From Eledone cirrhosa (lineage: Eukaryota), in contig OZ024742.1 of assembly GCA_964016885.1 (NCBI GenBank), positions 115,940,001 through 116,004,000 of the forward strand: DNA of 64,000 nt. Direction: 5' to 3'. A program made the translations under genes and the position numbers. Below the pieces are notes generated by a model. That model had not been told where the DNA came from. It was given only the letters and a program-made list of their open reading frames with translations, and ran no database searches. This document shows, one piece after another, positions 4,419-62,796 of this stretch (position 1 is its first letter; every line of letters starts with the position of its first letter).

Positions 4419-4453
<35 letters not shown>

Positions 4454-6119: not shown

Positions 6120-6192
<73 letters not shown>

Positions 6193-7370: not shown

Positions 7371-7438
<68 letters not shown>

Positions 7439-8650: not shown

Positions 8651-8693
8651 ACATTGTTGATGATAGCTAATAAGTTTGAAACTAGTACAGCGT
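8651..8693 (+). ncRNA. HHR (family B inverted arm), C3 to U variant
   Basis: acattg-TTGATGA-tagctaataagttt-GAAACTAGTA-cagcgt. Confidence 0.7.
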
Positions 8694-9310: not shown

Positions 9311-10252
<942 letters not shown>

Positions 10253-10930: not shown

Positions 10931-10999
10931 ATTTTATTATGCGCATTTCAAAAACAAATATCATCATGAGATGACATTTGCGTTTTCGTCAGATAAAAT
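10931..10999 (-). ncRNA. Type I HHR with palindromic GCGC loop III
   Basis: attttat-CTGACGA-long helix II-GAAAT GCGC ATA-ataaaat. Confidence 0.9.
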
Positions 11000-11127
11000 G
11001 GGGATACATGATATGAAGGTTAAAAAACACTTGTGAATAGTGAAGTTTTAAATCAACATATTTAAAACGTGTTGATTTAAAACTTCACTATTCACAAGTG
11101 TTTTTTAACCTTCATATCATGTATCCC

Positions 11128-11198
11128 TATTTTATCTGACGAAAACGCAAATGTCATCTCATGATGATATTTGTTTTTGAAATGCGCATAATAAAATA
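11128..11198 (+). ncRNA. Type I HHR with palindromic GCGC loop III
   Basis: tattttat-CTGACGA-aaacgcaaatgtcatc tcat gatgatatttgttttt-GAAAT GCGC ATA-ataaaata. Confidence 0.9.
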
Positions 11199-11341
11199 TA
11201 TTGAACTCTTTTTACCATTTTTTGATCTTATATTATTTATACTCCAGTCCTACACACTGTAGAATGCTACTTATCCGATATCTGCATTGCCTTATTGTAC
11301 TACAATAAAACTCACCTCCTACATTATATATATATACATAA

Positions 11342-12257: not shown

Positions 12258-12263
<6 letters not shown>

Positions 12264-12856
12264 GGAAAAAATGAAACTAATTTTTTTTTCTCACTCTTAT
12301 TACGGCTGTTACTTAACTATAAGTATGCATACGTATATACATATATGTATACAGACGTACAGTAGTATGTATATATATACATACATGCACACATATATAT
12401 ATGTCTGTATGGATCTACCGAGCACTTATTGTAATGCTCGGTTTGTTTGTAAATAAACATCCCGTATTAAGCCTTACAGTGTTTAGCAACCATCGTTGCC
12501 CTTTTGTTTAACACTGACAATGGGACGATGTATTTGTTTCAAGCTTATTAGCTATCGTCAGCACCGTATATCTTCCTGCCAAATGATTGAACGTCTGAAA
12601 GTATATACTTTCCCTATGCATATTAACGACTGGTATGCATATTAGGCTGCTCAGCCGTTAATATGCATAAGGAAAGTATATACTTTCAGATGTTCAATCA
12701 TCTGGCAGGAAGGTATACAGTGCTGACGATAGCTAATAAGCTTGAAACTAGTACATCGTTCCTTTGTCAGTGTTGAACAAAAGGGCAACGATGGTTGCTA
12801 AACACTGTACGGCTTAATTTGGGATGTTTGTTTACATGTTCGTATACATACTTATA
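12258..12856. mobile_element. Family B fold-back copy; HHRs at ~12525-12566 (minus, degenerate) and 12717-12759 (plus, intact core)
   Basis: Inversion at ~12635; gtg-CTGACGA-tagctaataagctt-GAAACTAGTA-cat. Confidence 0.85.
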
Positions 12857-13941
12857 TAAATATATATATATATATTTCCATTAGTTGAATACTTTTCACG
12901 ATCTCATTCGCATCTTTACCATTAATTCAATGTATATTTATTCGATTAGGTATCCCCCTGCCTCCTTGGAATTCATTCGCTATATACTATACGATATTGT
13001 CTTCATATAGTGAAGGCATGGTTTGAATGTAAGTGTCTTGCTTATGTGGATTACATCCAATATGAATCTGACCGGGGTGGTGAGGACCCTTCTAGCAGCG
13101 CTTGGGGCGCCTTCAGTGCTTGAAAGTAAATTAGATTTCCCTTTACTCCAGTATACCGTAATACTCTGAACGTTCGGTGGGCTTTTGGGCGCTTTGAGTA
13201 TTGGGGTGTCGCCATTTTCAGTTGTTGTTGTTAACCGCCGTACCATACCACTTATACTCTATAGTGCGTACTCCATAGGAATATAAAATTGAACTACTAG
13301 AGGATCCCAGAGCGGATAGTGGCTTCGCTTAGATTAACTAACATTATGTTATTTGTTTATTTGGTTTACACAACTCTATAATTAAATTCATTACCGTAAC
13401 TGGTCTTTCTAATTGGTAATTGGCTAGCATACAATACTTCACCGGCCAACTGTAAGGACTCTACTTATTTAATTAAATGCAAACAATTTTAAACATTCAG
13501 TTTTAATTTTCGATTCTTAAAATTAACCCTAACTTTAACTTCTAAACAATTTTAACCTGTAATTTCTTTTAAGCTCTGAATTTTCTCTACTTGGTGTGTT
13601 CCTAAATTCGCCCCGGCTGTTGTATACTTTCAGTGAGTATATAGACCTTTAGTAACACGATATTCTTCACCCCTTCCACTTTTCCGGCCGAAGGTTGTTC
13701 AAATTGAGAGGTAGTTGTGATTCTCCCAATAAGCTATACATCGCTCTACCCGCTTAGGGTAGTATCTGTTGAAGATAATTCATTCAGAGACGTCGGAGCA
13801 TTATAACAACATGCTTCTTCGATAGACTCTGGGTCAAAAACATAAGCACACATTTTCTCTTCTCCGTTCTTTGCTTGGTTCCTTAAATCTTTTAGAATGT
13901 GTTTACCATGATTCCGTTGGTATACATCTTTTACGCAATTT

Positions 13942-23999: not shown

Positions 24000-24495
24000 A
24001 TTATAGACCGAGAGTGGATGGTGAAGTCCGGTGAGCGGACACGTGGTGATACCCAGTGTAGGACTCTGCCAACGTACATTTTCTTACTAAATAGCTAGTG
24101 GCTAGTTATTTTGGTCTGAAGTAAGGAATTGAGAAAGAACGGCAAACCACTGCGTGGTAAGACACAGGCACAACCGCTAAGTAATCGAGACAAGAAAAGA
24201 GGAGAGAGTTGGGTGGAGTGGGCAGGGTTGGTGTCTCTGGGGCTCAGTTTGGAGGTGGTGCTACCCATATAGCTTGAGGACGGATCCCGTCATTTGGTGT
24301 TGACATGCACCAAATAGGTCTGCTCACTAATATCTCAAGGGTCTCACTCAGACAGAGGCTGCAAATGCCAAACCCGCTTCCGTCTACAGGTACTTCCCTA
24401 ACTTTGGTCCAAACCAAAGTGCTCGGGATCTTGTCCAGCTTGAGCTTCCAAATCAATTCAGAAAGCGTCGTACTTTTACTTTTGTCGATCCTATT
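24000..24495 (-). mobile_element. PLE GIY-YIG C-terminal fragment and 3' region
   Basis: STTLSE..IWKLK...W...[11 protein letters not shown]. Confidence 0.62.
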
Positions 24496-25505: not shown

Positions 25506-25534
25506 TTTGAATGGATACAGTTTAGTTGAAAGGA

Positions 25535-26223
25535 ATTTATTGACACGTGTTTCTATAACAGTTACATAACCTAAAACAGCTGCTATCTACAAACTTTTAG
25601 TTATGCAGACATTCAATATTTCAATGTTATTATTTACTGTCATTTCTTCAGAATAATATTACTGAGGACCTATTTAGTTTTTATAGAGAATATTAGGAGG
25701 GAGGGGTGAAGTTTTAGAAGAATAGTTGAAGGAGTGGTTTTTCGATAGCAGTGAGAATTCTTGGTGGCAGTGAGTAATTAGATTCCCATCTGTTGTTTTG
25801 ACATTTTTTATAGAATATATTATTGGTTATTTTTCTAAATCTATAGAAGGATTAGTGATAGTAAAGATATGCGTGGTTGGTTTTGTGTTTGCACTTAATT
25901 AACATTCAGACTTAAATTGTTCTTTCAAGTGTACGTATCCTTTCACCCACGCATTCACACAAAAATATATTTGCACACCTCTACAAAATACATATACTCA
26001 CAATTCACATATTCATACTTACATATATATACATATGCATACACATATATATACACACATGTATTCATGTACATACATACGCGCTCATGTGTATACATTT
26101 TCATACTCAACTTATCTTTATATACACACGTATAGACACACACACATATACATACATACTCTAGTCCATGTGTACACACATACACATACATACACATCTA
26201 TATACACATATATACATACATAT

Positions 26224-29680: not shown

Positions 29681-29793
29681 AAACACGCACACACACAACA
29701 AACATACATAACGGTACATACACACATACATCTATACAATTATATATATATAGATATTATTATTATGTAATAAACAACATAAGGCAATTATTC

Positions 29794-29847
29794 CATTTAC
29801 CAGTGGTTTCTTAAAAGCAAAAGGTTTTGCTTTCAATCCTCAGAATG
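29794..29847 (-). ncRNA. Type I HHR, intact core
   Basis: catt-CTGAGGA-ttgaaagcaaaa cc ttttgcttttaa-GAAACC ACT GGTA-aatg. Confidence 0.9.
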
Positions 29848-29863
29848 AAAAACCAGGATTTTT

Positions 29864-29918
29864 CATTCTGACGATTGAAAGCAAAACCTTTTTGCTTTTA
29901 AGAAACCACTGGTAAATG
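29864..29918 (+). ncRNA. Type I HHR, intact core
   Basis: catt-CTGACGA-ttgaaagcaaaa cct ttttgcttttaa-GAAACC ACT GGTA-aatg. Confidence 0.9.
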
Positions 29919-30034
29919 GAATAATTGCCTTATGTTGTTTATTACATAATAATAATAATTAAGCTCTGTTGCATACATAGAGCACTCTTTTTTCCTGCAC
30001 GTTTCCGATGGAATTACTTCATTCATACATATAT

Positions 30035-31707: not shown

Positions 31708-31756
<49 letters not shown>

Positions 31757-31791
31757 GGTGTTAAAGTTTGCTTGAAGCATTGTGAAATGTG

Positions 31792-32105
31792 TAAGAATAC
31801 GTATTTAAGAAAGCCACAACAATGCAAAGGGAAATCTCGAGGTAGGAAGTGAAATATAGATAGGAAAAACAGGTGAAAGTGAAAATTGAGAGAGACAAAG
31901 ATGAAAACAAAACAAAGGTAGAAGGGTTACCGTAGTAGAGATTTAATCCCGGGATTAAATCTCTACTACGGTAACCCTTCTACCTTTGTTTTGTTTTCAT
32001 CTTTGTCTCTCTCAATTTTCACTTTCACCTGTTTTTCCTATCTATATTTCACTTCCTACCTCGAGATTTCCCTTTGCATTGTTGTGGCTTTCTTAAATAC
32101 GTATT

Positions 32106-32109
<4 letters not shown>
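31792..32109. repeat. Perfect 318-bp palindrome, 159-bp arms, no spacer
   Basis: Centre atttaatccc|gggattaaat at 31950/31951; no mismatch seen between arms. Confidence 0.95.
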
Positions 32110-35406: not shown

Positions 35407-35568
35407 CCTACATGAAAATAACCACTACCACAGTCACCAACATTCCCCTAAAGAGGAAACTTCTTCCTCTTTTTTAGCCATTATGAATCTGGCAAAAGAA
35501 CTGGAAATAAACATTCGAGCTATCACCCAGCACCATCGTCCAATATCACCCCACTGCACAAACTCCCA

Positions 35569-38500
35569 TTGCTGCCATTAACAAACAAACAAATTAACAA
35601 CACACCAAAACAATTAAAACCATCCACTCTCGCCTCAACATGTTTGCTTAACGGCCAAGGCATCAACCCTTCCACCAATACTCAAAAATGGAAGATCAAA
35701 TTCCTGGAGGACATGGTTGATGTCCATCCAAACCACATCCCTTTCTTCGTCCTCACTGAAACCCATCTCAGTAACCTCCACTTGGAAGCCGCGGTGAAAG
35801 TGAAAAATTTCAAAGCCATCCGTGCTGATCGCGCTGGCAGAAGAAAGGGTGGGACTGCCATTTATGTCCATAATTCTTTCTCAACAGAGGCTATGAACAT
35901 ATTTTCTAATGGATACTGCGAAGCAGTCACTGTATTCAGTCAAACCAACAACCTAATAGTAATTGGGCTCTATAGGCCACCCCAAAAGCCTCTACCATGA
36001 TTCAAGGAATGCCTCAACAGCATAAAGTATTTCATCCAAGAGTGTCACCCTGACAACATCTTAATGATGGGGGACTTCAACCTCCCCGGAGTTGACTGGT
36101 CCACAAACAGCCTGCCACCAGGTTCTTCTGCCTCAACCTCTAACAGGGAAGCAGTGGAATCGCTTCTTGACTTCATGGATGATTTCTTCCTGTCCAAACT
36201 GGTGCTCGAACCAACGAGGTGCCACAAAAACGTCCTAGACTTAAATTTCAGCAATCACACTGACACTATCCACAATATTGCAGTAGAGAAAACTACTCCC
36301 TGATCATGACATGGTTCTCTATGATCTGAGATTCCACCATCCAATATACAAACCCAATGTCATCTCTCCTGTCCATCCGTTTGACACTATGGATTTCCAT
36401 AATGCAAACTGGGAAGTGATCAGTCATGATCTTGCACATGTCGACTGGTCCTTCACGCACACTGACACACCCACTAACATCAAAATGTCCTGGAAGACAT
36501 TTGTGGACACTGTTACAAACATATGTGCAAAACACAACCCATTAAGAACTATAAACAAATCTAAGAACAGAATCCCTAGAAATAGAAAAACGCTCATCAG
36601 GAAAATTAAGAGAACTAACAAAAAATCAACAAGCTGAAATACTGTCAGCAGCAACACACCAACTTGACTGCCATTTCATCACTAGAGATTAAAACACATA
36701 ACCTCCAAAAGAATATGATGTCTATCATCAACAATCAAATAAGAGCTGAAGAGGCCTGGGCCATTGAGAAGATCAAACTCAATCCCAAAGTCTTATTTTC
36801 ATTTGCAAAAAAACACAAAATCACTGGCTCTACTGTTGGCCTACTAATTGATGAAAATGGCACTCCTCAAGACAATGCTAAAACCATGGGTGAGATACTG
36901 CAGAAACAATACTGCTCTGTTTTCAGCAATCCTGATATGGCCTATCTGGGCTGTATCGGCTATGTTACTCCCCATTACACCTTATCGGACACAACGTTTG
37001 GCGCCCCTGATGTCTTAGCGGCAATAAAGGAAATCAAGCATAATTCAGGAGTAGGTCCCGATAGGTTCCCTGCTTGTGTCTTGAAGGCGTGTCAACACCA
37101 ACTTGCATCTCCTCTTGCCAATCCGTGGCGGAACTCACTAGATGCTGGATATGTGCCAGAAAACCTTCTATCCCAGTCTGTTGTCCCAGTTTTCAAAAAA
37201 GGAAACAAATCCCTTGCCGCGAATTACCGTCCAATCACACTCACCTTTCATATCGTTAAGGTATTTGAGAGAGTGGTGAGATCGCGAATGGCTCACTTCC
37301 TTGAGAGTAACAATATGCTGAACTCCAACCAGCATGGATTCCGTAATGGAAGGGATTGCCTGACGCAGCTACTTCATCACTCTGATGACATTTTGAGAGC
37401 CTTGGGAGAGGGTTCCTTCACTGATGTTATCTACCTTGATTTCAGCAAGGCCTTTGATAGGGTTGATCACAACATTCTACTGAGAAAGCTGTCCAATATT
37501 GGTGTCACTGGAAAGCTGCTGCAGTGGATCAAGTGCTTCCTGTCAAACAGAACCCAACATGTTGTAGTCGAAGGAGTCAGATCCAGCCCAGCCAAAGTCA
37601 TTAGTGGGGTCCCACAAAGCACTGAGTTGGGCCCACTTTTCTTCATCATCTATATTAATGACATCACTGACATCATCAAACACAGCAACATTAGAATTTA
37701 CGCTGATGATTCCAAGCTCCAGAAGGTCATCAATGGCATGGATGACCGGATAAGCCTTCAGTCAGACCCAATGGGCGGAAAAGAACAACATCGTACTGAA
37801 CGAAGACAAATTCCAAATGACCCACTTTGGAAAAGAGGATGCTCTGAAACTCCCGTACCCCTTCCCTCCGGTGAAACTCTCGTGACATCTAACAACATCA
37901 GAGACTTCGGAGTAACTGTGGACAGCAACATAAGCTGGGCCACGCATATAAGCAGCAAATTTGACATGGCCCGCAGAATGTGTTCCTGGATCCTCAAAAC
38001 CTTCCAGTCGAGAGATTCCCACACCATTATCCTTCTCTTCTCCACTTTTGCTCGACCACATCTTGAATACTGTTGTCCAATGTGGTCTCCCCATACGAAA
38101 CAAAGTATCATAAAACTTGAAGCTCCCCAAAGGGCAATCACCAAAAAGATAGATGGCATGTCAGACTTTGACTACTGGGGTCGACTAGAAAAGCTGAAAC
38201 TTTACTCGCTCCAACGTCGCCGTGAGCGTTATATTATCTGCATTATGTGGAAAATGTTTCATCAGCACTCTCCAAATGATGTTGGCATCACCTTCAAAAT
38301 ACACCTAAGGCTTGGGCCCCGTGCTATCCGTCCCAAACAAAAATCTAATTCACTACTCATAACAACAATACGGCACAATTATTTCACCTCAATTGGCCCT
38401 GCTCTCTTCAACATCACACCAGGACACGTCAAAACAGAAACTGACCACACAAAATTCAAGATGTCTTTGGACAAATTCCGCCAAGTAATCCCGGACAAAC

Positions 38501-38571
38501 CACCCACACCCGGATATGTCTCCGCAAACAGTAATTCCCTTCTCGAATGGGCCATGGTGCCCAAATCCTGA
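35569..38571 (+). pseudogene. LINE ORF2: apurinic-like endonuclease + reverse transcriptase, with stops and frameshifts
   Basis: LTETHL, RADR..RKGGTAIYV, LYRPP, MGDFNLP, LDL..S; NYRPITL, QHGFR, YLDFSKAFDRV, SGVPQS, YADD, RPHLEYC. Confidence 0.93.
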
Positions 38572-39130: not shown

Positions 39131-39140
39131 ACATATAATA

Positions 39141-39361
39141 ACAGAACACACTCACTGTTTGGTTGGTTTTCGCTTCTGTATCTTTTATATCAGTTAATTT
39201 ATTCGGTCCTCAATGTTTACCATTGACTGACTAACGGTCAAAAATACAGATATAATATAGACACGAACACATATATATAGTTTTTACAAAGTTCTTTCGT
39301 TGCACATCTGCAACATCGTCAGTGTTGCTATTATGTTTACTCCTGTTGTAAATGTTTGATT

Positions 39362-39408
<47 letters not shown>

Positions 39409-39442
39409 ACTATGTGTGTAGTTATGTGTATGTATATATATA

Positions 39443-39524
<82 letters not shown>

Positions 39525-39792
39525 CACATATATGACAGGAGGAAACATAGTAGCACCACTGACGTTGTTGCAGATGTGCAACGAAAGAACTTTGTAACAC
39601 TATATATATGTGTTCGTGTCTATGTTATATCTGTATTTTTGACCGTTGGTCAGTCAATGGTAATCATTGAGGAACGAATAAATTAACTGAAATAAAAGAT
39701 ACCGAGGCGAAAAACAACCAGACAGTGAGTGGGTTCTGTTATTAATTCTAGCAATATTATTACAACAATATCTCACTCCCCAAGTATAACAA
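39141..39792. mobile_element. Two inverted PLE family E pLTR fragments; HHRs at 39286-39325 (minus) and 39555-39595 (plus)
   Basis: CTGACGA-t-gttgca gatg tgcaac-GAAAG AA CTT (right copy has CTGACGT); microsatellite between the arms. Confidence 0.82.

Positions 39793-40059: not shown

Positions 40060-40063
<4 letters not shown>
39872..40063 (+). mobile_element. Family A element with HHR at 39910-39946
   Basis: gaac-CTGAAGA-ttgggaaagcat-GAAAGTACTT-gttc. Confidence 0.8.
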
Positions 40064-40158
<95 letters not shown>

Positions 40159-40162
40159 ATAT

Positions 40163-43100
40163 TTATACTTGGGGAGGGCCATATGTGTGTAATATTGCCA
40201 GAATAAATAACAGAACCCACCAAACTGTTTGGTTGGTTTTCGCTTCTGTTTCTTTTATATCGGTAATCTAATTTATTCGGTCCACAATGTTGCCATTGAC
40301 TGACCAACGGTCACAAATCATACAGATACAATATAGACGAAAACACATATATATAGTTTATCAAAGTTCTTTCGTTGCACATCTTCAACATCGTCAGTGG
40401 TGCTATAGATTACTCCCGTCGCATTGTATTTCTACGCCATCTTTATTTAGTTGTGTTTATATATTTATTTATTTATTTGTTTGTTTGTTTATTTTATTTT
40501 GTCTTCTTTGCGCATGCGTTTGCGTGTGTGTATAGTGTTTTGTTTGATGTGTGTTCGTGATTGGGTGACTGTGTATTGGTTAATGTATTCTATATGTTTA
40601 CTAGTGTGTGTTTATATGTTTGTTGTTATTGTGCTTGTGTATGTATTTATTTATTTATTTATCTATTTATTTATTTATTTATTTATACCTCTCTTAGGTC
40701 AGTGTTGTTTGTTTGGGTGTTGTTGTTATTCCATTCATTCTTTCTGTTTAGTCTTAGCCTTCTAAGTTCTATTTCACTGGCCTCTCTGATTTGCCTATCT
40801 GCTGGGTCATTTCTATGTTTAGATATTATTCTAATTTCCATGTTGTCTATGTTACCGTCGTGTTGTTGTCTGGCATGTTCGTATAGTACTGACACGTTTT
40901 TTCATCCTTTTAGTTCCCCCCAGTGTTGGTCTATCCTTTCACCTATGCTACGAGCTGTCTCGCCTATGTATGTTGTTGTATTGTTTCTGCAACTACCCTC
41001 TGTACATCTTATGCTATAGACTACGTTTCTAGTTTACAGTTTATCCGGGGGTTTACCTTACATATGATACATTTCCTATAAGTACAGTGGGTTTTCTTAA
41101 AAGGGTAGGTTTTGCTGATCAGGGATTTTATGGTGGTTCCTGGCTTTTCTACCACCTTAATCTTTAAGTGGGTCTTTCTCGGGGCCTTTCTCCACTGGTT
41201 AGCTAATTTCCCTCCAGGGGTAGCATCCACAAACATGACACTCAGATATCTCCGGTTGTCGTACCATGAGGTGGCTTTCCCTATCTTATGTCTAGCCCTA
41301 TCTAAGCTATTCCAGGATTTGCTCCTGATTAATGGGAACATTCCTTTCTAGTCCAGTTCTATGAGGGTCTCATACTTCTCCATGGCTCCTTCGTAAACTC
41401 TGACTATGTCTCTTTGGTTGTTGTCATAGGACTGCATGTGGTTGCTGAAGTGTTAGATGTGTCTTTCCATTTCTGTTGGGTCGCACATGCGGGATACGTT
41501 CTTCATCACTCGTACCAAATCTGCGATCAGAATATTAAACTTAGCACTACTGGACACTGCTGAGTTTTTGAGCATCAGGTATTTGGAGGCCATGGGTTTA
41601 GCATAGTGTGAGTGGAGAATTTGGACTCTCTCATCTATAGTGTTAATCCAGAGTTCCGTGTCTTATACAGGTAGTCTATTGTTAGGGTCTTTGGAAGGGT
41701 AGTCGATAGTTACAGTTATACACTGGTGTATGGAATTAGCTATCTGCTGGATGCTTTCCATTGTGCTACGTTCTAAATCAAACTTGTTAGTGCTCTCTAC
41801 TGGGGATGTTCTTATAACTATATTGATATCGTCTACGTAACGAGAGTACATGATGAGGTCTATGGAGCTCTCATTAAGGAGATCTTTAAGTCTCCTTTCC
41901 CACCATGCCATAAAAAGGTTGGCAACATCACCAGCTATGCTGACGTCAATGGCTGCTCCCTCATTTTGGGTGTAGATCTTCTCGTTGAACTTGAATATGT
42001 GGCCCTTTAGGCTAGTTTTGATACTAGCCCCTATTGCATGTGCGACCATTTTTCTTACCTGATCATTGTTTTGGCGGGTCCGTATAGCTTTGGTCCACCC
42101 AATCCACCTTCCCATGGGCGTCTTGTTTGCATGGAGGTTATGGTGGGGGTGTACCTCGTATGGGTCTACTAGGGCAGAAACTTCTAAGGTCATGGCTCTC
42201 TAGGTAGTCAGTCTCGTATTTAAGTCTAAGTAGGAGCCCCAGTTCGTCTGTGTCGACGTCGCAGAACTCCACTTCACTCCCAATGATCATCTCCACACAT
42301 TTTTCCACAGCAAAATCAATGTTAATGGATGGGTACAGTGATACCACATCCATGCTGCCTATTATGCAGTTGGATAGGTTCCTGTTTTTGTTGTACTCAC
42401 TGATTCTGCTGAGGAGGTCCTCTGTACTGTCACATACATCTGGGGACATCTTGATTATGGGGCGTATAACCACTGAGAGGAAGTAGGAGATCCTGTAGTT
42501 GCTAGCTATATTAGCTCCGCAAATGGGTCTTGTTGGTGGTCTTGTTGTCGGGTCGTCGACTGTCTTGTGGTCTTTGCGGAGCCCATACAGGATGGTATGC
42601 CATATGTTAGACGCCTGGAAGTTGTTGGCAGTGCGTCTGCTTGGCTTTAGGATGTCAGTCCACATCATCATGTGAGCGTTGATGATTTTCTCTCTCCCAT
42701 CGTGTGTTTGTTGTGCAATTTCGCTCCTGTTGGTGATGTGGGGTTGCATTAACTTGATGTAGTTCGGCATGCTATCTACTGACATCCTACCCGACTTATC
42801 CGTGGGTAGACATACTACCTCACCATCCCTTGTGCGCTGCTTGAGGCTAACCAAGCCTTCTATAGGTTTCCTCCCAAGTTGTTGGGCCTCTGGTTTGCTC
42901 TGTCTCTTAGTATACCGGTCTACTATTTGTTAATCTTATTTCTAGCTATGGTGAACTGTGACTCTGTCTCGTCATCTATTTGTTGTGGTATGCAAACTAT
43001 TTTATTAAAGGGTAACCTCGTAGGATAGTTATTACCCATCTTATATGTTTTGTCAGCTGGGTTGAAAAATAGTTTCTCTAGGGGGTTGTCATTATATCTA

Positions 43101-43860
43101 TCGTCATAGTTGCGTGTGTTGCTATTATTGTTATTATGGTGGTTGTTGTTGTTCCTATCATTAGCATTATTATTATTGTTATGATTGCTAGATGTATTGT
43201 TGCTGTTGTGATTGTTGTTTACATCACCGTTATTGTTGTTGTTACTGTTATTTCTACCATTATGGTTGTTACTTTTATTATGTTTCTTGTTTTTGTTGTG
43301 CCTATCATTAATGTTGCTACATGTATTTTTCCATTATTACCACTGTGGTTGTTGTTTTTGTTGTTCGTATTGTTACCGTTATTACTACTGTGGTCGCTGC
43401 TGCTGTGTCTGTGGTTAATGTTTCTATTATTATTATTATTGTGGTTGTCGTTGTTGTTCTGTCTCTCGTTAGTATTATTACCATTATTACTATTTCTCAC
43501 TCTCCTGCTATTGTTATTGTTATGGTTGTTATTCCTATACTCGGAGTTATTGTTTATATTACTACTACCGTTATTATTGTTGTTGTTGTAGTTTACTTTT
43601 GCATTCCAACGTATTTTTGTCAAACACTCTTCCAGCTCCGTTTTGCAATCAATAGGTTTAATATTTTTATAGATGGCAAATTTTGGTGGTAGCTGCAGGA
43701 TTTGTTGTTCTTGTTCACCGATTAAAGTGTTCCCATAAATATTTACTGTGTGGTCATTGGCAAATTCTTCCGGTAGTTTTACATCAGTCATACGGATATT
43801 GTTGATGTTATCTTGGTATTTTTGAGAATATTCTATTTTCCTTTCTTGTAGTTGTTTATC
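40163..43860 (-). mobile_element. PLE family E, left arm: N-terminal region with poly-Asn tract, RT, GIY-YIG, pLTR with HHR at 40360-40401; frameshifted
   Basis: LPPKFAI, PTDKSG, IIGSMDVVSLYPSI, YSRYVDD, EASEI...LNRKNEW. Confidence 0.92.
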
Positions 43861-46266
43861 CTATTTCCACTCGATAGTTATATGCCCCATAATCAAGATG
43901 TCCCCAGATGTATGTGACAGTACAGTGGACCTCCTCAGCAGAATCAGTGAGTGCAACAAAAACAGGAACCTATCCAACTGCATAATAGGCAGCATGGATG
44001 TGGTATCACTGTACCCATCCATTAACATTGATTTTGCTGTGGAAAAATGTGTGGAGATGATCATTGGGAGTGAAGTGGAGTTCTGCGACGTCGACACAGA
44101 CGAACTGGGCCTCCTACTTAGACTTACTTACGACACTGACTACCTAGAGAGCCATGACCTTAGACGTTTCTGCCCTAGTAGACCCATAAGAGGTAGACCC
44201 TCCACCATAACCTCCATGGCAAAAAAGACTCCCATGGGAAGATGGATTGGGTGGACCAAAGCTATACGGACCTGCCAAAACAATGATCAGGTAAGAAAAA
44301 TGGTCGCACATGCAATAGGGGCTAGTATCAAAACTAGCCTAAAGGGCCACATATTCAAGTTCAACGAGAAGATCTACACCCAAAATGAGGGAGCAGCCAT
44401 TGGCGTCAGCATAGCTGGTGATGTTGCCAACCTTTTTATTGTAAGGTGGGAAAGGAGACTTAACGATCTCCTTAATGAGAGCTCCATAGACCACATCATG
44501 TACTCTCGTTACGTAGATACGTAGACGATATCAATATAGTTATAAGAATATCCCCAGTAGAGAGCACTAACAGGTTTGATTTAGAACGTAGCACAATGGA
44601 AAGCATCCAGCAGATAGCTAATTCCATACACCAGTGTATAACTGTGACTATCGACTACCCTTCCAAATACCCTAACAATAGACTACCTGTATTAGACACG
44701 GAACTCTGGATTAACACTATAGACGAGAGAGCCCGAATTCTCCACTCACACTATGCTAAACCCATGGCCTCCAAATACCTGATACTCAAAAACTCAGCAA
44801 TGTCCAGTAGTGCTAAGTTTAATATTCTGATCGCAGATTTGGTACGAGTGATGAAGAACGTATCCTACATGTCCGACCCAACAGAAATGGAAAGCCACAT
44901 CCAACACTTCAGCAACCGCATGCAGTTCTCTGGCTACAACCAAAGAGAAAGAGCCAGAGTTTACGAAGGAGCCATGGAGAAGTATAAGACCCTCATAGAA
45001 CTGGACATGAAAGGAATTTGCCCATTATACAGGACCAAATCCTGGAATAGCTTAGATAGGGCTAGACATAAGATAGGGAAAGCCACCTCATGGTACGACA
45101 ACCGGAGATACCTGAGTGTCATGTTTGTGGATGCTACCCCTGGAGGGAAATTAGCTAACCAGTGGAGAAAGGCCCTGAGAAAGACCCACTTAAAGATTAA
45201 GGTGGTAGAAAAGCCAGGAACCACCATAAAAACCCTGATCAGCAAAACCTACCCTTTTAAGAAACCCACTGTACTAATAGGAAATGTATCATATGTAAGG
45301 TAAACCCCCGGATAAACTGTAAAACTAGAAACGTAGTCTATAGCATAAGATGTACAGAGGGTACTTGCAGAAACATGAAAACAACATACATAGGCGAGAC
45401 AGCTCGTAGCATAGGTGAAAGGATAGACCAACACTGGGGGGAACTAAAAGGAGGAAAAAACGGGTCAGTACTATACGTACATGCCAGACAACAACACGAC
45501 GGTAACATAGACAACATGGAACTTAGAATAATATCTAAACATAGAAATGATAGGCAAATCAGAGAGGCCAGTGAAATAGAACTTAGAAGGTTAATACTAA
45601 ACAGAAAGAATGAATGGAATAACAACAACACCCAAACAAACAACACTGACCTAAGAGAAGTATAAATAAATAAATAAATAGATAAATAAATAAATTGATA
45701 AATAAATAAATAAATAAATACATACACAAGCACAATAACAACAAACACATATAAACACACACTAGTAAACATAGAATACATTAACCAATACACAGTCACC
45801 CAATCACGAACACACATCAAACAAAACACTATACACACACGCAAACTCATGCGCAAAGAAGACAAAATAAAATAAACAAACAAACAAATAAATAAATAAA
45901 TAGATAAACAGACTAAATAAAGATGGCGTAGAAATACAATGCAACGGGAGGAATCTATAGCACCACTGACGATGTTGCAGATGTGCAACGAAAGAATTTT
46001 GATAAACTATATATATGTGTTTGTGTCTATATTGTATCTGTATGATTTTTGACCGTCGGTCAGTCAATGGCAACATTGAGGACCGAATAAATTAGATTAC
46101 CGATATAAAAGACACAGAAGCGTAAAGCGAAAACCAACAAAACAGTGAGTGTGTTCTGCTATTAATTCTGGCAATATTACACAAATATGACCATACCCAA
46201 GTATAACAATATTTGTTTCGACACACGATTTCATATAAAAAACCTCGCAAAACTAATTCATCGCCG
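43861..46266 (+). mobile_element. PLE family E, right arm (inverted, more 5'-truncated) with pLTR HHR at 45962-46003
   Basis: ORFs 43898-44524, 44596-45303, 45375-45665 (YIGETARS..ER..H); reverse complement of 40163-42490. Confidence 0.93.
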
Positions 46267-46338
<72 letters not shown>

Positions 46339-46391
46339 GCATATACAGATACAAATATACATACACATACATATATATATATATTCATATA

Positions 46392-46457
<66 letters not shown>

Positions 46458-46516
46458 TGTATATATATATATATGTATGTGTATGTATATTTGTATGTGT
46501 GTATATATCTGTATTC

Positions 46517-46561
<45 letters not shown>

Positions 46562-46952: not shown

Positions 46953-46994
46953 ATTTATATATATATATATATATATATACACATACACACACAT

Positions 46995-47310
46995 ACACAT
47001 ATATGCATACACAAATAAACGCATGTACAAAAAAACATACGCATACATACATACGGCCACTCATACAAATACGTACATACATACACTCCTAAATATACAC
47101 ATACACACAGACACATATATACAGTATAAAGATGAATAACGCTCTACATGCTTAATTCATCTTTATACTGTATATATGTGTCTGTGTGTATGTGTATATT
47201 TATGTATGTATGTCTGTACGTATATGTATGAGTGGCCGTATGTATGTATGTGGATGTTTGTGTGTACATGCGTTTATGTGTATATGCGTATATGCGTATG
47301 TATAAATAAA
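46995..47310. repeat. Low-complexity fold-back repeat
   Basis: cagtataaagatgaat...attcatctttatactg around ~47145; catacggccactcatac mirrored in both arms. Confidence 0.72.
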
Positions 47311-47446: not shown

Positions 47447-47549
<103 letters not shown>

Positions 47550-47760
47550 CGTTTCTGAATTTGTTTAGCCAGATTCTTTATCTGAAATCGTGTGTTGAAA
47601 CCGATATTGTTATACTTTGGGAGGGTCATGTTGCCAATAAGAAACACACACACCAGTTGCTTTCACTTCAATTTATTATAATAAATTTATAATAAATTTA
47701 TAAATTTATAAATTTCTGGTTGGTTGGTTGGTTCCACAACCAGATAGTTGTTTATAAATT

Positions 47761-47803
47761 GTCATAGTTCTTTCGTCACACACTCTGTGACCTCTTCAGT
47801 GAC
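47761..47803 (-). ncRNA. Minimal type I HHR in family D pLTR
   Basis: gtca-CTGAAGA-g-gtcaca gagtg tgtgac-GAAAG AA CTA-tgac. Confidence 0.9.
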
Positions 47804-48006
47804 TGGGGATTCCTTTCTCTGTTTCTGTGCCTCTCCTTTGTTGTGTCCTACGCAATTTTGTTTCTGTGAGTGTGTGTTGTGTGCTCAGTCTGCGCATGCG
47901 CCACATCCGGGTGTCTGTGTGTGTTTATGTTCATTTATTTATTTGTTTATTTACATGTTACTGGTTGGTTGTTTGTTCTATATGTGTGTGTGTTTTCATT
48001 TTGTCC

Positions 48007-50088
48007 TTAATTGTAAGTTGTGATGTTGCTGTTCCACTCATATTTTCTATTTAATTTTGGTTGTAATTCTTTTATGTTTATTGCCTCTGTAATTTGTCTA
48101 AACATTGTGTCTTTTCTGTGTGTAGATTCTATTTTTATTTCTATGTTCTCTAATTTACCCTTGTGTTCTATTTTAGCATGTTGGTAGAGTACAGATGATT
48201 CTTTACTATCTTGAAGGTCTCGCCAGTGTTCATTTATCCGTTCCCCTACACTACGAGCTGTCTCACCTATGTACACTATATTTTTGTCTCTACATTGTCC
48301 TTCAGTACATCTTATGCTATACACTACATTTGTAGTTTTACAGTTAATATGGGGGCTTATTTTACAGGTTATACATTTCTTATCTATACATGAGGGTCTT
48401 TGAAAAGGGTATGTCTTGCTAATAAGTGTTTTTACGGAGGTACCTGGTCTTTCTACTATCTTAATATTGAGTTTATGTTTATTTAGGGCCATTCTAAATT
48501 TGTAAGCTAATTCACCTCTAGGGGTTGTATCGATGAACATTACACTCTGGTATTTATTGCTATCATACCATGAGTTTATTCTATTAGCCTTGTTCCTAGT
48601 TAGTTCTATTGTATTCCAAAATGTGCTCCTATACAAGTGGCAGGTCCCATTTATGTCATTATTTACAATTTTTTCCCATTTGGTTCTGGCTCCTCTATAC
48701 ACTCTGATTTTATCTCTCTCATTGTAGCCAGAGAACTGCATACGGTGGATGAAGTGTTGTATGTGTCTCTCTAGTTCTTCGGGGTTGCACATGCGGGACA
48801 CATTTCTCATCACCCGTACCAAATCCGCAATCAGTATGTTGATTTTGGTATGGTCCGAAACGGCCGAGTTTCGGTGGATCAGATGTTTGGAAGTCATGGG
48901 TTTGGCATAATGGGAATGGAGGATTTGTTTTTTGTTGTTAATGGTATCTAACCAGAGCTCTGTGTCTAGTACAGGTAATCGATGGTTGGGGTGTTTACTT
49001 GGGTAGTCTATAGTAAATCTAATGCTCTGGTGGATGGAGTTTGCTATTTGCTGGATGCTTTCCATTGTGTTTTTCTCTAGTTCCTGACTGTTCTCTAGTG
49101 GGGGTGTCTTAACTACGATGTTTATATCATCTACGTAGCGGGAGTACATTATCAGGGTTAAGGGGTCTTCTGATTGTTCTTTAAGTTTATGTTTAAGTCT
49201 ACTGTCCCACCATACCATGAATAAGTTAACTATGTCGCCTGCAATGCTAACACCAATGGCTGCTCCATTCTCTTGGGCATATGTTTTTCCATTAAATTTG
49301 AACATATGTTCCTTAAGGGTTAGTTTTATGCTGGCCCCTACCGCATGTGCAATCATTTTCTTCAGTTCATCGTGGTTTTCGGGTGTCCGTATGGCTCTGG
49401 TCCACCCGTTCCATCTATCCGTGTGGGTTTTCTTGGCCATTGAGGTAATGGTAGGTGGTTTGCCTCTTGCTGGTCTTGTAGGGCACAGGTTGCTAAGGCC
49501 ATATGTGTCTAGGTAATTATTACTATAGGTAAGCTTAAATAGGAGTCCCAGCTCACTGGTATCAATCCCACGGAACTCAACCTTGCTCTCACTGATCATT
49601 TCTACGCATTTCTCCACAGCAAAATTCACGTCAATAGATGGATACAGGGACACAACATCCATACTGCCTATTATGCAGTTTGTTAGGTCCCTAGATCGGT
49701 TACTCACGCCGATTCTGCTGAGGAGGTCCTCCGTGCTGTCACATACATCTGGGGACATTTCAATGATGGGGCGTATGATCAGGGAGAGGAAGTAGGACAG
49801 TCTGTAGTTACTAGCAATGTTAGCTCCACAGACTGGCCGTGTTGGTGGTCCCGCGACAGTGTCACTGCCCGTGTTATGGTCTTTTCGAAGCACAAACAAC
49901 GCCGGCACGTCATTGTTCCAGGCCTGGAAGTTGTTGGCAGTCCTTTTGTTGGGCTGCATTATATTCGTCCACATCACCATATGGGCATTGAGGGCTTTTT
50001 CTCTATCCTCATGCTCCTGTGGTGTTACCTCTCTTGTGTTAGTGATGTGTGCGTTGCATTGCCTGGATTTAGTTTGGCAGGCTATCAA
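48007..50088 (-). CDS. Penelope-like RT + Cys linker + GIY-YIG endonuclease, 693 aa uninterrupted, N-terminally truncated
   Basis: RKDH, TRPVCGA, IIGSMDVVSLYPSID, GAAIG, YSRYVDD, HYAKPM, CIDKKCITC, NVVYSIRC, YIGETARS.GER..EH, EAINI..LQPKLN. Confidence 0.95.
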   Translation of the reverse strand: MIACQTKSRQCNAHITNTREVTPQEHEDREKALNAHMVMWTNIMQPNKRTANNFQAWNNDVPALFVLRKDHNTGSDTVAGPPTRPVCGANIASNYRLSYFLSLIIRPIIEMSPDVCDSTEDLLSRIGVSNRSRDLTNCIIGSMDVVSLYPSIDVNFAVEKCVEMISESKVEFRGIDTSELGLLFKLTYSNNYLDTYGLSNLCPTRPARGKPPTITSMAKKTHTDRWNGWTRAIRTPENHDELKKMIAHAVGASIKLTLKEHMFKFNGKTYAQENGAAIGVSIAGDIVNLFMVWWDSRLKHKLKEQSEDPLTLIMYSRYVDDINIVVKTPPLENSQELEKNTMESIQQIANSIHQSIRFTIDYPSKHPNHRLPVLDTELWLDTINNKKQILHSHYAKPMTSKHLIHRNSAVSDHTKINILIADLVRVMRNVSRMCNPEELERHIQHFIHRMQFSGYNERDKIRVYRGARTKWEKIVNNDINGTCHLYRSTFWNTIELTRNKANRINSWYDSNKYQSVMFIDTTPRGELAYKFRMALNKHKLNIKIVERPGTSVKTLISKTYPFQRPSCIDKKCITCKISPHINCKTTNVVYSIRCTEGQCRDKNIVYIGETARSVGERINEHWRDLQDSKESSVLYQHAKIEHKGKLENIEIKIESTHRKDTMFRQITEAINIKELQPKLNRKYEWNSNITTYN

Positions 50089-50258
50089 CCGACATTCTGC
50101 CAGAATTGTCTGTCGGAAAGCATGCTATCTCTTCATTATGTGAGCAACCAACCAGAAATTTATAAATTTATAAATTTATTATTAATTTATTATAATAAAT
50201 TGAAGTGAAGCAACTGGTGCGTGTGTTTCTTATTGGCAACATGACCCTCTCAAAGTAT

Positions 50259-50342
<84 letters not shown>

Positions 50343-50369
50343 ATACTTTGGGAGGGTCATGTTGCCAAT

Positions 50370-51020
50370 AAAGAATTTATTGACACGTGTTTCAATAACA
50401 GTTACATAACCTGAAAACAGCTGCTATCTACAAAGTATTAGTTATGCAGACATTCAATATTTCAATGTTATTATCAACTGTCATTTCATCAGAATAATTT
50501 TACTGAGGACCTGTTTGGTTTTATAGAGAATATTAGGAGGGAGGGGTGAAGTTGTTACAAGAAAAGTTGAGGGAGTGGTTGTTTGATAGCAGTGAGAATT
50601 TTTGGTGGCAGTGAGTAATTAGATTCCCATCTGTTGTTTTGATATTTTTTATAGAATATATTATTGGTTATTTTTCTAAATCTATAGAAGGATTAGAGAT
50701 AGTATAGATATGCATGGTTGGTTTTGTGTTTGCACTTAATTAACATTCAGACTTAAATTTTTCTTTCAAGTGTACGTATCCTTTCGCCCACGCATTCACA
50801 CACAAACATATATGCACAGCTCTACAAAATACATATACTCACATACACATACTTACATGCTCATAATTACATACATATACACATGCACATATATATATAT
50901 ATACATATATATACATATATACATGTACATACATACGCATTTATGTGTATATATTTTCATACTCAACTTATCTTTATATACACACGTATAGACACACATA
51001 TATACATACATACTCCAGTC

Positions 51021-51071: not shown

Positions 51072-51892
51072 TTTAATATATGAATGCACTTACATCTAAC
51101 TATACACGTCAAACATATATATATATTTACTTATTTATATACATTTTCACATATATATACATACATACGGTCGCTTTTAGACACATTCATTATAGCATAT
51201 TCGCACCTATTCTCATCAGCATATCTTTCCATTATTAGTGTGGTAATTTAAGGTTATTAATATACATATTAAGAGATTGTTTTTATATTTTTCTAACTAG
51301 ATTGAGATTTATATAGTTGGGGGGATGTCCCTCTTTTATGTAATATTCAGCTTGTAGTGGGAAAAAAGGGTTTTAGTTCGGTGACGGCAGAATAATGTTC
51401 GTTCAATTCTGTTATTAAGCAATTTCTTCTTGTGTGTGATTATGTAATAAATCTCAAGATTACACAATTTGCAGAAATTTTGGCTCCTGCAAAAGCTTTG
51501 TGTTTTAGCTAATTTCTCCCATTTTAGGGTAAACTTTTGATCGCTATCCCTGAGCGTCCAAGCTTTTTCTGCTAAATTGTTACATTTCTTTGGCTCTGGT
51601 GTTTTATTGAGTAAGCATGCCTATATAATCGAGATTTAAACGATGTTGCCGTTGATCCCACGTAATACCACTCGTTGCCTCCGGATTTAATGGTACACTT
51701 ATAAATGATATTTTTTTCCCGACAGTTATTGCCGAGGGGGCAGTTGTCAGGAAAGGTGCAGTTACAGTTGTGTACGTTGGGTTTTCTCTGGAGTAGTATT
51801 GCGGACGAAATTAGGTGTGGTTTATTTATGTTCTGTAGTGTATTGTCTACTGTTTTGTTTGTGTTCTTTGTACTTAAGTTTTTAGTGTTTTC

Positions 51893-53744: not shown

Positions 53745-54149
53745 GGAAAAAATGAAACGGAATTTCGTATCTCACACTTAGTTTTCGGTGCGCCCGGCCG
53801 ATTAACTCACTCAATATGCAAATTAGGGTGCTCAGCCGTTAATATGCATAAGGAAAGTATATACTTTCAGACGTTCAATCATCTGGCAGGAAGGTATACG
53901 GTGCTGCCGATAGCTAATAAACTTGAAACTAGTACATCGTTCCTTTGTCAGTGTTGAACAAAGGGGCAACGATGGTTGCTAAACACTGTACGGCTTAATT
54001 CGGGATGTTTGTTTACAAACTAACCGAGCATTATAATAAATGTTTGGTGAATCCATACGTACATATATATATATGTGTGCATGTATGTATATATATATAT
54101 ACATACTACTGTACGTATGTATACATATATGTATGTACGTATACATACT

Positions 54150-54150
<1 letters not shown>
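53739..54150. mobile_element. Family B copy (plus) with short inverted left arm; HHR variant at 53898-53940
   Basis: gtg-CTGCCGA-tagctaataaactt-GAAACTAGTA-cat; ATGCAAAT at 53816. Confidence 0.82.
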
Positions 54151-54183
<33 letters not shown>

Positions 54184-56437: not shown

Positions 56438-56657
56438 TAAGGAACGATCGACTTTCGTCAAATCGGACCGAGGGAACAATGTTTCCGTTGGTCTTTCCAA
56501 TTGCTAATACTATCTATCGGTCGCAACTCCAGGTAGAAGGAGCAACGTGAAATAAAGTGTCTTGCTCAAGGACATAACGCATCGCCTGGTCCAGGAATCG
56601 AACTCACAACCTTACGATTGTGAATCCAATTCTCTAACCACTCAGCCACACGCCTTC
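56438..56657 (-). mobile_element. tRNA-derived CORE-type SINE
   Basis: gaaggcgtgtggctgagtggttaga...gagttcgattcc...gtccttgagcaagacactt. Confidence 0.82.
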
Positions 56658-57114
56658 ACATATATATATATATATATAAATATATATTCGATTTCTTGGA
56701 ACGGTGAGAGAAAGGAAGATACTTTTAAATTTGAAAATTAGAAGACAGACTTGAGGGCATTAAATCACACATATAAGCAATGGAAATAATGTGTGCTTGT
56801 ATTTGTTTGTATGTTGCTGTATATATATGTCACGGTTGGTACTCATCCCTTAATCAATGATGTTCTACTTCTGAATATCATCGACTTGAAGACAATACTT
56901 TTCACAAGCCGTACGATGATTAGGGTTCAGTGACTAATTCCAGTAAGAGTATTACTAGTTTCACGTTTTATATGGAAAATGGGAATATAAATATATATAA
57001 ATATATAAAGATATATATAAAAACCGTACAAGATCCCGTTAAGGGTGAGAGCAGCGATTCTTTGCTTAAACGTTAATCTGTTATTTTAATATATACATGC
57101 ATACATACATAAAT

Positions 57115-60839: not shown

Positions 60840-61200
60840 TACACTCTTAGCCTGGGCTTCCCGGAGGATTCCATGCGGCCAATGTGCCCCTTCTCTGGTC
60901 TCTGAAGGTCATGATAATTTCAGATTTCAGGTTGACCGCGTCATCCTTCACTCCAACTAACTCCACGGCCTCTTATAGGCATAATCTGCACTTTCTACTT
61001 CCAGCCGAGTATGAATTTGCGTGCCGAAAGATACACAAGAGAAGGTCTTTCATGGCCCACATCAAGTCCGTTAACCTAGTGGAGTGCCTCTTGCTTCGAT
61101 CCTTGAAGAAGTTCGTGTGGTTATACATCCGCGATTTAAAGGTCATGGATGTTGCGCCGATGTGGGTGCGTTTTATATTTTGGGTGCTGACCACACATGT
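60840..61200 (-). mobile_element. PLE GIY-YIG fragment
   Basis: [38 protein letters not shown]. Confidence 0.75.
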
Positions 61201-62187: not shown

Positions 62188-62218
<31 letters not shown>

Positions 62219-62356
62219 TTATTTATTTAGGTTTGTTGATTCACCACTGGATAGAACTCGTTGTAATATTATGGAGAGCACTCAACGTAATGCAACTCAC
62301 CCGTCTTCGTTTGTGTAGTTGGTGGTGCGATGGTGCGAGTACGGAGTTAATTATTA

Positions 62357-62685
62357 TAAAATAACCGGAGGCTGGACTGGTGTAAATCCTTGAAAGGTTT
62401 ATTATACTATGATCATTTCAATGACCGGGTTCAGTATGAATCCGGTGACATCATCAGGTATTCAATGTATAACTCGAGGGCGGCCGACTGAAGTAGAAGC
62501 TGCAAATAGTAGGTCCTCATCTTGTCTCTGATGGTCAGCCCTATGGATTTTATCTGTTATATTCCTTTGTTATACTTTGAATACCTGATGATGTCACCGG
62601 ATTTATACTGAACCCGGTCATTGAGATGATCATAGTATAATAAACCTTTCAAAGATTTACATCAGTCCAGCCTCGAGTTATTTTA
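62357..62685. mobile_element. Fold-back element; HHRs at 62404-62461 (minus, intact) and 62581-62638 (plus, GAGA variant)
   Basis: atac-CTGATGA-tgtcaccgg//ccggtcatt-GAAAT GATC ATA-gtat; ~117-bp arms, ~95-bp spacer. Confidence 0.85.
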
Positions 62686-62687
62686 GA

Positions 62688-62796
<109 letters not shown>

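Follow-up and report, generated by a model that had tools for sequence, protein, structure and literature searches.

A head-to-head inverted Penelope-like element of Eledone cirrhosa as a test case for the formation of inverted copies

Penelope-like elements (PLEs) have been described in print with inverted copies arranged head to head, tails on one side only, hammerhead cores, and (TA)n targets (Craig 2021; Arkhipova 2013; Frangieh 2024). How their tandem and inverted structures are formed is an open problem (Craig et al. 2021, PMC8557442), and the explanation of head-to-head copies available in print is self-priming, the route favoured by Arkhipova et al. (2013, PMC3846280). In the Poseidon PAc study (Frangieh et al. 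2024, PMC11167929), a PLE protein was purified for which a dimer is predicted. In vitro, it cleaves both strands and extends them from two adjacent positions within the ORF, which correspond to the genomic tail; the choice of start site was not seen to differ between the strands.

In this study, we analyzed an inverted PLE in a window of 64,000 bp from Eledone cirrhosa (the whole stretch of DNA investigated, to which all positions refer). The locus is an ordinary dead PLE insertion with a layout already known for these elements. An initial annotation had put the architecture forward as noteworthy, although it is published as typical of PLEs; the locus is of value as a test case for the mechanism by which PLE inversions arise.

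Arms, junction, and 3' ends

Self-BLAST and global alignment revealed inverted homology between 40157-42488 and 46214-43859. The left, long arm (40157..43858, minus strand) comprises 3702 nt and the right, short arm (43859..46267, plus strand) 2409 nt, in agreement with the 3.7 kb and 2.4 kb given in the initial annotation. Of the 6.1-kb asymmetric palindrome proposed there, the inverted arms are real, but the structure is a spacer-containing inverted repeat with 2.3-kb paired arms and a 1.37-kb loop, not a perfect palindrome. Its limits, originally set at 40163..46266, were adjusted slightly to about 40157 (AT-rich, ±6) and 46267. The 5'-to-5' join (43855..43884) was borne out as well, with its position shifted from 43860/43861 to 43858/43859, as the plus-arm homology starts at 43859; an overlap of a few nt is possible, and no microsatellite or host DNA lies between the arms. 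Within its first 25 nt, the right arm mismatches the left arm at six positions, a cluster with P=4.5e-4 if taken as a fixed window and 0.16 as a maximum over windows.

Both arms are 5'-truncated, so that the PLE trait of terminal repeats derived from partial copies with 5' truncation is present in inverted form. A spacer of 1370 nt (42489..43858, minus strand) is found in the left arm only; it encodes an N-terminal part of the ORF, lacks roughly the first 100–170 codons of full-length homologs, and reveals protein homology up to about 43857. None of 27 candidates was a relative reaching past the left-arm 5' end, from which the sequence could be read across the junction. The right arm is truncated inside the RT region and carries a 3' tail of 53 nt (46215-46267, plus strand) that is absent from the left arm, which confirmed the different 3' end points recognized before. 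Since each arm thus has sequence absent from the other, neither is a simple copy of its partner. The left arm displays at least four in-frame stops plus frameshifts, and the right arm frameshifts from an 8-nt duplication at YVDD and single-base indels; both arms are broken, and the copy is inactive now.

As noted initially, each end lies at a microsatellite, (TA)29 followed by (GA)17 on the left (40063..40155), which is the presumed target, and a (TA)n-rich tract on the right (46268..46558). No target-site duplication was visible at the locus, where any would be masked by the microsatellite on both flanks. The left 3' terminal segment (40157..40441, minus strand) is pLTR-homologous and contains the probable ORF-start ATG at 40182, while the right 3' terminus (46187..46267, plus strand) probably represents the first 27 ORF codons. 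Discrete short ends, as in the tail-less left arm, were found in copies at 40157, 39784, 11833, 50266, 9315, and 50339, and discrete long, tailed ends at 46267, 47549, and 10142. The copies at 50266 and 50339 lie on either side of a single (TA)n tract and point towards each other. The tail looks coding, to judge from the differences between two families, 11/17 of which fall at third positions (p=0.008); comparison of the tail peptide with homolog N-termini was not significant (1/29 and 4/29 top-ranked), and no profile match to these N-termini was obtained.

Coding content, family assignment, and hammerhead-like motifs

The left-arm coding region paired with the right arm (40683..42488, minus strand) comprises RT with an intact YVDD, a Cx4CxxC linker, and a GIY-YIG/CCHH endonuclease (EN); in the right arm, linker and EN are found in one frame (45261..45665, plus strand) as Cx4CxxC-x7-C. 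The left arm additionally harbors an Asn-rich stretch (43080..43594, minus strand; 47/127 and 41/84 residues in two frames), and its RW-to-PFNK spacer comprises about 194 codons, compared with 33–76 in 17 of 18 measurable homologs. There were 168 homologs at E<=0.001, and the top named protein match came from Octopus vulgaris. Searching the arm fragments against Pfam gave no RT and no GIY-YIG match. The RT domain was identified via the sister ORF 48007-50124, with which the arms align at about 60–65% and which itself matches RVT_1 at a level below Pfam's cut-off (E=2e-4). For the C-terminal GIY-YIG domain, the CCHH motif was read directly from the arm; the arm EN is 34% identical to that of P0094 (E=9e-19), which in turn matches Pfam GIY-YIG at 6.6e-7, and its profile match to the window's other GIY-YIG had a probability of 95.7. 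A search against the PDB resulted in two weak bacterial RT matches only and no PLE structure. By these domains, the element is classified as an EN+ PLE with RT and C-terminal GIY-YIG.

The Cx4CxxC motif was detected in 95/120 homologs, with seven residues to the first CCHH cysteine in 78/95, and RT motif 4 reads G[GA]AIG in 94/120. The combination of a short Cx2-5CxxC linker with CCHH that characterizes Nematis is present. The remaining clades do not fit: Neptune needs a long CxxC-to-GIY linker compared with seven residues here (the linker of the Neptune-type element at 2620-3510 exceeds that of the arm by 17 residues), Penelope/Poseidon has no Zn-finger-like linker, Hydra would be expected to show a CxCx5C linker without CCHH, and Naiad has an N-terminal EN and no canonical hammerhead, whereas here the EN is C-terminal and hammerhead cores were found. 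Based on its Nematis-type linker and its RT motif, the family may represent an unnamed lineage.

Candidate hammerhead-like motifs are located at 40357..40410 in the left arm (minus strand; one stem II pair broken) and at 45953..46006 in the right arm (plus strand), their CUGACGA-stem II-GAAA cores starting at 40397 and 45966, respectively. A core scan of the 64-kb window yielded 14 hits compared with a mean of 0.27 in 30 shuffles, and a fuller hammerhead descriptor 17 compared with 0.4 in 20 shuffles. In an alignment of six copies from two families only, 90% of cells were paired and 4/12 pairs compensated. The Rfam hammerhead models gave no match over 45880-46270, neither arm motif adopts a hammerhead as its minimum-energy fold (z 0.89 and 0.76), and proximal stem I amounts to 2 bp only. 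Over the whole window, Rfam returned 223 matches at E<=1, none at gathering score among the 150 matches listed; these were nearly all miRNA models on hairpins or microsatellites, besides two sub-threshold HH9 matches (another family). The HHR-bearing pLTRs of the initial annotation are therefore retained as to the cores in both arms, while Rfam and folding are negative and the term pLTR is loose at a locus that has no direct tandem pLTR copy and presents its 3' termini in inverted form only. We regard the arm motifs as hammerhead-like, with putative self-cleavage.

Origin of the inversion

Over 2318 aligned columns, the arms differ by 96 substitutions; they also differ by 13 indels, of which 8 are gaps in the left arm and 5 are gaps in the right arm, the arm-specific indels having been described before. 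Among 70 coding differences, 23 are derived changes of the left arm and 25 of the right arm, with 22 unresolved (p=0.89), so that arms of clearly different age, which the initial annotation had named as refuting its reading, were not observed; nor were separate target sites, there being no target DNA between the arms. In regard to selection, dN/dS between the arms was 1.39 (577 codons; CI 0.72–2.9) compared with 0.17–0.18 to the sister family, and from this interval at most about a third of the arm divergence can predate insertion under selection. The arms are shown to be of equal age, from one template lineage, and in neutral decay. In a comparison of five family copies, 4 substitutions and 1 indel are exclusive to the two arms, and 2 substitutions and 2 indels are exclusive to the two arms of the 39136-39784 hairpin; two indel columns conflict with arm-to-arm pairing, and by raw distance the right-arm terminus lies as near to the 39136 copy (11/181) as to the left arm (13/188). 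Gene conversion between the arms could mimic such shared variants. Transitions and transversions between the arms (40/56) resembled those in nine dispersed repeat pairs (65/106, p=0.60). That the low transition ratio might indicate an artefact or mutation peculiar to hairpins was considered and rejected, as dispersed repeats (p=0.60) and small hairpins (p=0.46) show the same ratio.

In the window, 15 insertions occupy 16,552 of 64,000 bp, and 20 fold-backs were found, six of them outside the tail scoring. All 14 scoreable fold-backs, from several families, carry a tail on exactly one arm. Scan-detected hammerhead cores, all facing outward, occur in nine of these and are missing from five, and the small fold-backs share the microsatellite ends and one-sided tail of 40157-46267, which supports the earlier description of this locus as their coding-scale version. 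Extra 5' sequence is located on the tail-less arm in 40157-46267 and 12258-12858 and on the tailed arm in 47549-50266, 6186-7376, and 9315-10142, so tail and spacer are unlinked. Several small fold-backs (29762, 30123, 31794, 10887) have loops of 0–10 nt. One palindrome in the window, of 314 bp, is 100% perfect.

Based on the shared diagnostic variants and the lack of target DNA between the arms, one insertion is most likely. Our preferred reading, which we consider reasonably probable on sequence evidence, is a single retrotransposition of an endonuclease-bearing PLE into the (TA)n microsatellite with both cut ends priming and the two primings coupled; the copy indicates with unusual clarity that, in a single event, copying probably began from each of the two cut DNA ends. 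One end would prime at the short site, about 25 nt downstream of the ATG, and the other at the long site, 81 nt downstream of it. Synthesis would stop after about 3.7 and 2.4 kb, and the two cDNAs would then be linked at their ends using little homology or none, gaps being filled by repair. The template could be a single RNA, either multimeric or circular, or a pair of RNAs, and the long/short coupling would be as from a dimeric complex. The initial annotation had suggested two independent primings: two are likely, given the reciprocal spacer and tail, but they appear to be coupled, as one long and one short end are combined in 14/14 fold-backs, with a probability of <=6e-5 under independent start choice per end.

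The strongest competing explanation, which we consider unlikely, is a self-primed fold-back, in which one cDNA or antisense RNA would fold back and template its own copy, giving a hairpin that the endonuclease then resolves and integrates, one tail being trimmed. Both self-priming (Arkhipova 2013) and endonuclease-mediated resolution (Craig 2021) have already been proposed in print, and trimming would naturally give exactly one tail. The near-zero loops of several small hairpins also favour it; as fold-back priming explains them equally easily, they count against two-end priming. In a simple target-primed fold-back, however, everything in the short arm must also be present in the long one, yet here the tail is on the short arm only, and 12258-12858 breaks the rule likewise. 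Fold-back at this locus would need a 1.37-kb loop, and the weak complementarity between left-arm end and right-arm start, which favours it (top 2.9% of windows), is not the best in the element; junction overlaps of <=5 nt or small gaps, wherever a reference copy exists, also speak against it. The one fold-back version that remains compatible with these data is a free hairpin intermediate with two tails, either of which could be trimmed.

We regard as quite improbable that two separate insertions of the same subfamily came to lie head to head by chance and were later homogenized by gene conversion. PLE copies do accumulate in (TA)n tracts of the window (e.g., 50266/50339), and the family copies are roughly equidistant at the terminus, but such a history is opposed by the junction without microsatellite or host DNA, by the equal arm age with neutral differences, and by the complementary short and long ends, as in all 14 scoreable fold-backs. 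Though palindromes are a known artefact class and the perfect 314-bp palindrome points that way, it is hardly credible that one copy was later duplicated by fold-back at the DNA level or that the structure is a chimera of the assembly or of reads, given arm differences that are mostly substitutions with a dispersed-repeat-like transition/transversion ratio, equal derived changes on both arms, and element sequence unique to each arm.

Returning to coupled priming from both cut ends, an obligately coupled two-site reaction, in which one complex would always prime both cut strands as long plus short and its templates would yield two multi-kilobase cDNAs, can be put forward tentatively, and we lean slightly against it. 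As far as the parts considered here describe it, the in vitro system shows no strand difference, so strict one-long/one-short pairing is not itself predicted by that work (PMC11167929). If true, obligate coupling would make the one-sided tail a strict rule and not an option, would supplant fold-back self-priming as the source of PLE inversions, and would also yield a large share of local perfect inverted repeats in this genome. The tail-less long arm and the one-tail pattern provide a count that is repeatable genome-wide and a prediction for the in vitro system. At most, the remaining product of the copy could be double-stranded RNA, if transcribed. In octopus, an unusually high density of near-perfect double-stranded RNA loci has been described (PMC5625713), for which, and for the double-stranded RNA that underlies hyper-editing there, the pattern would be a possible source if general.

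Comparison with known systems

In L1 twin priming, both target strands prime reverse transcription and an inversion results, its two pieces being different, adjoining parts of one RNA. In contrast, both arms here contain the 3' end, and the end of the first arm is not the start of the second. Regarding a strict one-tail rule or two-end priming, literature searches on PLEs yielded only the qualitative statements given above, though older Penelope papers may already contain the rule.

The locus resembles canonical C-terminal EN+ PLEs (Craig et al. 2021, PMC8557442) in the order of RT and GIY-YIG, 5' truncation, an inverted truncated copy adjoining the 5' end, a tail at one end only, a hammerhead in the terminal segment, and a microsatellite target masking the duplication. 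It differs in having no direct tandem pLTR, an inverted arm of 2.4 kb with most of RT plus EN, and a tail of 53 nt instead of 30–40 nt. With Pen2–Pen4 of Adineta vaga (Arkhipova et al. 2013, PMC3846280), it shares the head-to-head inversion, a terminal repeat and tail overlapping the first ORF codons, and a long Asn-rich ORF stretch, which is N-terminal to RT here and separates RT from EN or from the thumb there; a short junction palindrome and a visible target-site duplication are lacking here.

In the parts of the study considered here, Poseidon PAc of Anolis (Frangieh et al. 2024, PMC11167929) is similar in its AT-rich target, both strands of which are cut and extended in vitro, and in two start sites within the ORF start that define the tail. 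These lie about 111–118 nt into the ORF compared with ends at about +25 and +81 here; Poseidon is without the CxxC linker present here, and those parts describe no head-to-head products. In regard to the linker, the family is unlike Neptune with its 25–30 residues, and RT motif 4 reads G[GA]AIG compared with GLAMG in two nematode rows of fig. S1 (PMC8557442). Agreement was found with the Nematis clade (EN alignment, supplementary fig. S2, PMC8557442), which likewise displays a short Cx4CxxC linker with about seven residues to the first CCHH cysteine.

Arms and coding content of the head-to-head element

Self-BLAST revealed that positions 40157–42488 are inversely homologous to 46214–43859, giving a head-to-head Penelope-like element (PLE) with a left arm at 40157–43858 (minus) and a right arm at 43859–46267 (plus). 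The left arm is unpaired for 1370 nt (42489–43858) up to the junction 43858/43859, and the right arm for a 3' tail of 53 nt ending at 46267. Inspection of the junction sequence revealed no host DNA, and microsatellites, in which this animal DNA is rich, adjoin both outer ends. Global alignment of the arms resulted in 96 substitutions over 2318 columns (coding 70/1751, 3' UTR 6/283, terminus 20/284) and 13 indels. The 6.1-kb arm layout agreed to within a few bases with its description in the initial annotation.

Broken pieces of one ORF were identified in both arms, in the order RT, Cx4CxxC linker, and GIY-YIG endonuclease with CCHH residues. Both arms harbored frameshifts, and the left arm at least four in-frame stops. 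The best named protein match of the family was an Octopus vulgaris predicted protein (67% identity), which makes an octopus host probable. Since full-length homologs comprise c. 1000–1200 aa and the left arm aligned only from residue c. 100–170 on, both arms are 5'-truncated. The N-terminal region of the ORF displayed an Asn-rich stretch (43080–43594), and P0001, an Octopus vulgaris homolog, an Asn/Ser-rich stretch at the equal position. A sister family (47549–50266) carried RT and GIY-YIG in an open frame of 705 codons (48007–50124) with 70% DNA identity to the focal family; its long minus arm is tailed and its 125-nt plus arm tail-less, so that it mirrors the focal element.

A motif scan detected hammerhead cores at 40397 (minus) and 45966 (plus), the count of cores far exceeding that in shuffled sequence, and the hammerhead-like motif revealed compensatory changes between focal and sister family; Rfam and single-strand folding did not confirm the hammerheads of the focal arms. 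The final 81 nt of the right arm open with ATG, and 11 of their 17 differences from the sister family fall on third codon positions (p = 0.008), so that terminus and tail probably represent the ORF start. Comparison of the tail peptide with the N-termini of homologs did not confirm this reading.

Age of the two arms

Taking the sister family as outgroup, we placed 23 of the coding changes on the left arm and 25 on the right arm (p = 0.89), 22 being left without assignment. Thus, arms of different age, which according to the initial annotation would speak against its reading, were not found, and neither were separate targets for the two arms. The dN/dS ratio was 1.39 between the arms (p = 0.37 against a value of 1) and 0.17–0.18 between arms and outgroup; based on the interval of the former (0.72–2.9), different active templates may account for no more than roughly one third of the arm divergence. 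Among five terminal family copies, four substitutions and one indel were unique to the two focal arms, two indel columns conflicted with their pairing, and raw distances (13/188 between the arms vs. 11/181 to another copy) did not single them out. An artefactual palindrome is countered by the substitution spectrum between the arms, which resembled that of nine dispersed repeat pairs.

One-tail pattern and proposed insertion mechanism

We surveyed the window for local inverted matches, masking only pure dinucleotide runs, and chose 20 local fold-backs by eye, leaving out rows pairing dispersed copies. Fourteen were scored for tails; the others were left out because of a left end overwritten by another repeat (39136), 64% identity (5471), a length of 48 bp (23378), or low complexity (46333, 46991, 57965). 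In all 14, one arm ended at a microsatellite and the opposite arm reached 38–141 nt beyond. In the two related coding families, ends fell on two recurring positions, one tail-less (short, n = 6) and one tailed (long, n = 3). Had start sites been chosen independently, one-tailed pairing in all 14 would have a probability of at most 6e-5; the independence of the "two independent priming events" proposed initially is thus not supported. Two primings as such are supported by the sequence unique to each focal arm. Scan-detected hammerhead cores, every one directed outward, were present in nine of the 14, and we infer that the remaining five are PLE-derived as well. The side of the extra 5' sequence was readable in five cases, lying on the tail-less arm in two (focal element, 12258–12858) and on the tailed arm in three. 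Junctions with a reference copy revealed overlaps of 2–5 nt or gaps of 1–7 nt.

We consider it rather probable that one insertion generated both arms: both cut target strands would prime reverse transcription, beginning at the short start on one strand and the long start on the other, and the two truncated cDNAs would be end-joined. A free self-primed hairpin with subsequent endonuclease trimming, a model fitted by several small hairpins whose loops are close to zero, is the less probable alternative. Simple target-primed fold-back, in which the second arm must be contained in the first, and later DNA duplication of one arm both fail, since each focal arm carries sequence absent from the other. 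A coding second arm of 2.4 kb could only be made from two RNAs, from a multimeric or circular RNA, or by strand displacement along a single RNA. At 6186–7376, both arms exceed the 466-bp repeat unit, suggesting templates that are multimeric in at least one of the families.

This 6186–7376 insertion is a retrozyme-like fold-back of a tandem hammerhead unit, apparently non-coding, with 98% arm identity and a junction overlap of 5 nt; Rfam HH9 matches (6465–6536, 7100–7171) were below the gathering score. A hammerhead-bearing 433-bp tandem family formed tandem-plus-inverted and fold-back insertions at 7425–8975, 12258–12858, and 53781–54170. Fold-backs at 10887–11324, 29762–30025, and 62211–62690 displayed hammerhead-like motifs with an unusually long stem II (27–36 nt between core halves), two of them with a palindromic six-base stem III segment. 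The perfect 314-bp palindrome at 31753–32109, lacking a loop and any hammerhead found, has a one-sided extension of 38 nt and is either of very young age, a product of conversion, or misassembled. The low-complexity fold-back 46991–47301 (310 bp, 89%), with neither hammerhead nor clear one-sided tail, is a possible symmetric exception. Fold-back 39136–39784 belongs to the focal family and is centred on a (TA)n tract; the repeat overwriting its left end recurs at 56539–56664. One further repeat occurs at 50339–50792 and 25530–25951; the former copy opens with the sister family's short end (33 nt), followed by an unlike body with its own hammerhead-like core, and the repeat is possibly a non-autonomous partner. 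A LINE-type element (about 35450–38571) showed an endonuclease-like frame (no Pfam match) and an (ACA)n tract preceding an RT frame (Pfam RVT_1, E = 6e-21).

Comparison with known PLEs

The short linker of the focal element is of the Nematis type and unlike the long one of Neptune. The element was not assigned to a clade despite its linker, as its RT motif 4 departs from that in the two nematode sequences aligned in PMC8557442. Another PLE (2620–4504; Pfam matches for RT and GIY-YIG) possessed the long Neptune-type linker. Short GIY-YIG-like frames were located at about 51572–51880, 60973–61200, and 24244–24490 (minus strand), the first with a linker that, read by eye, matched the CxCx5C described for the Hydra clade.

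The head-to-head architecture is already known: Craig et al. 2021 (PMC8557442) show an inverted 5'-truncated copy in canonical PLEs with a C-terminal endonuclease, and Arkhipova et al. 2013 (PMC3846280) give the head-to-head arrangement as the commonest inverted form, offer self-priming as its explanation, and describe Asn-rich inserts. The literature searched, older subscription papers being outside its coverage, yielded no statement of strict one-tail pairing in PLEs and no case in which a long arm lacking the tail is held against fold-back. A tail or terminus overlapping the ORF start is reported for other PLEs as well. In the in vitro work of PMC11167929, the start site was alike on both strands, unlike in the single-insertion model favoured here, whereas cleavage and extension of both strands by a PLE protein, from two adjacent internal sites, fits that model.
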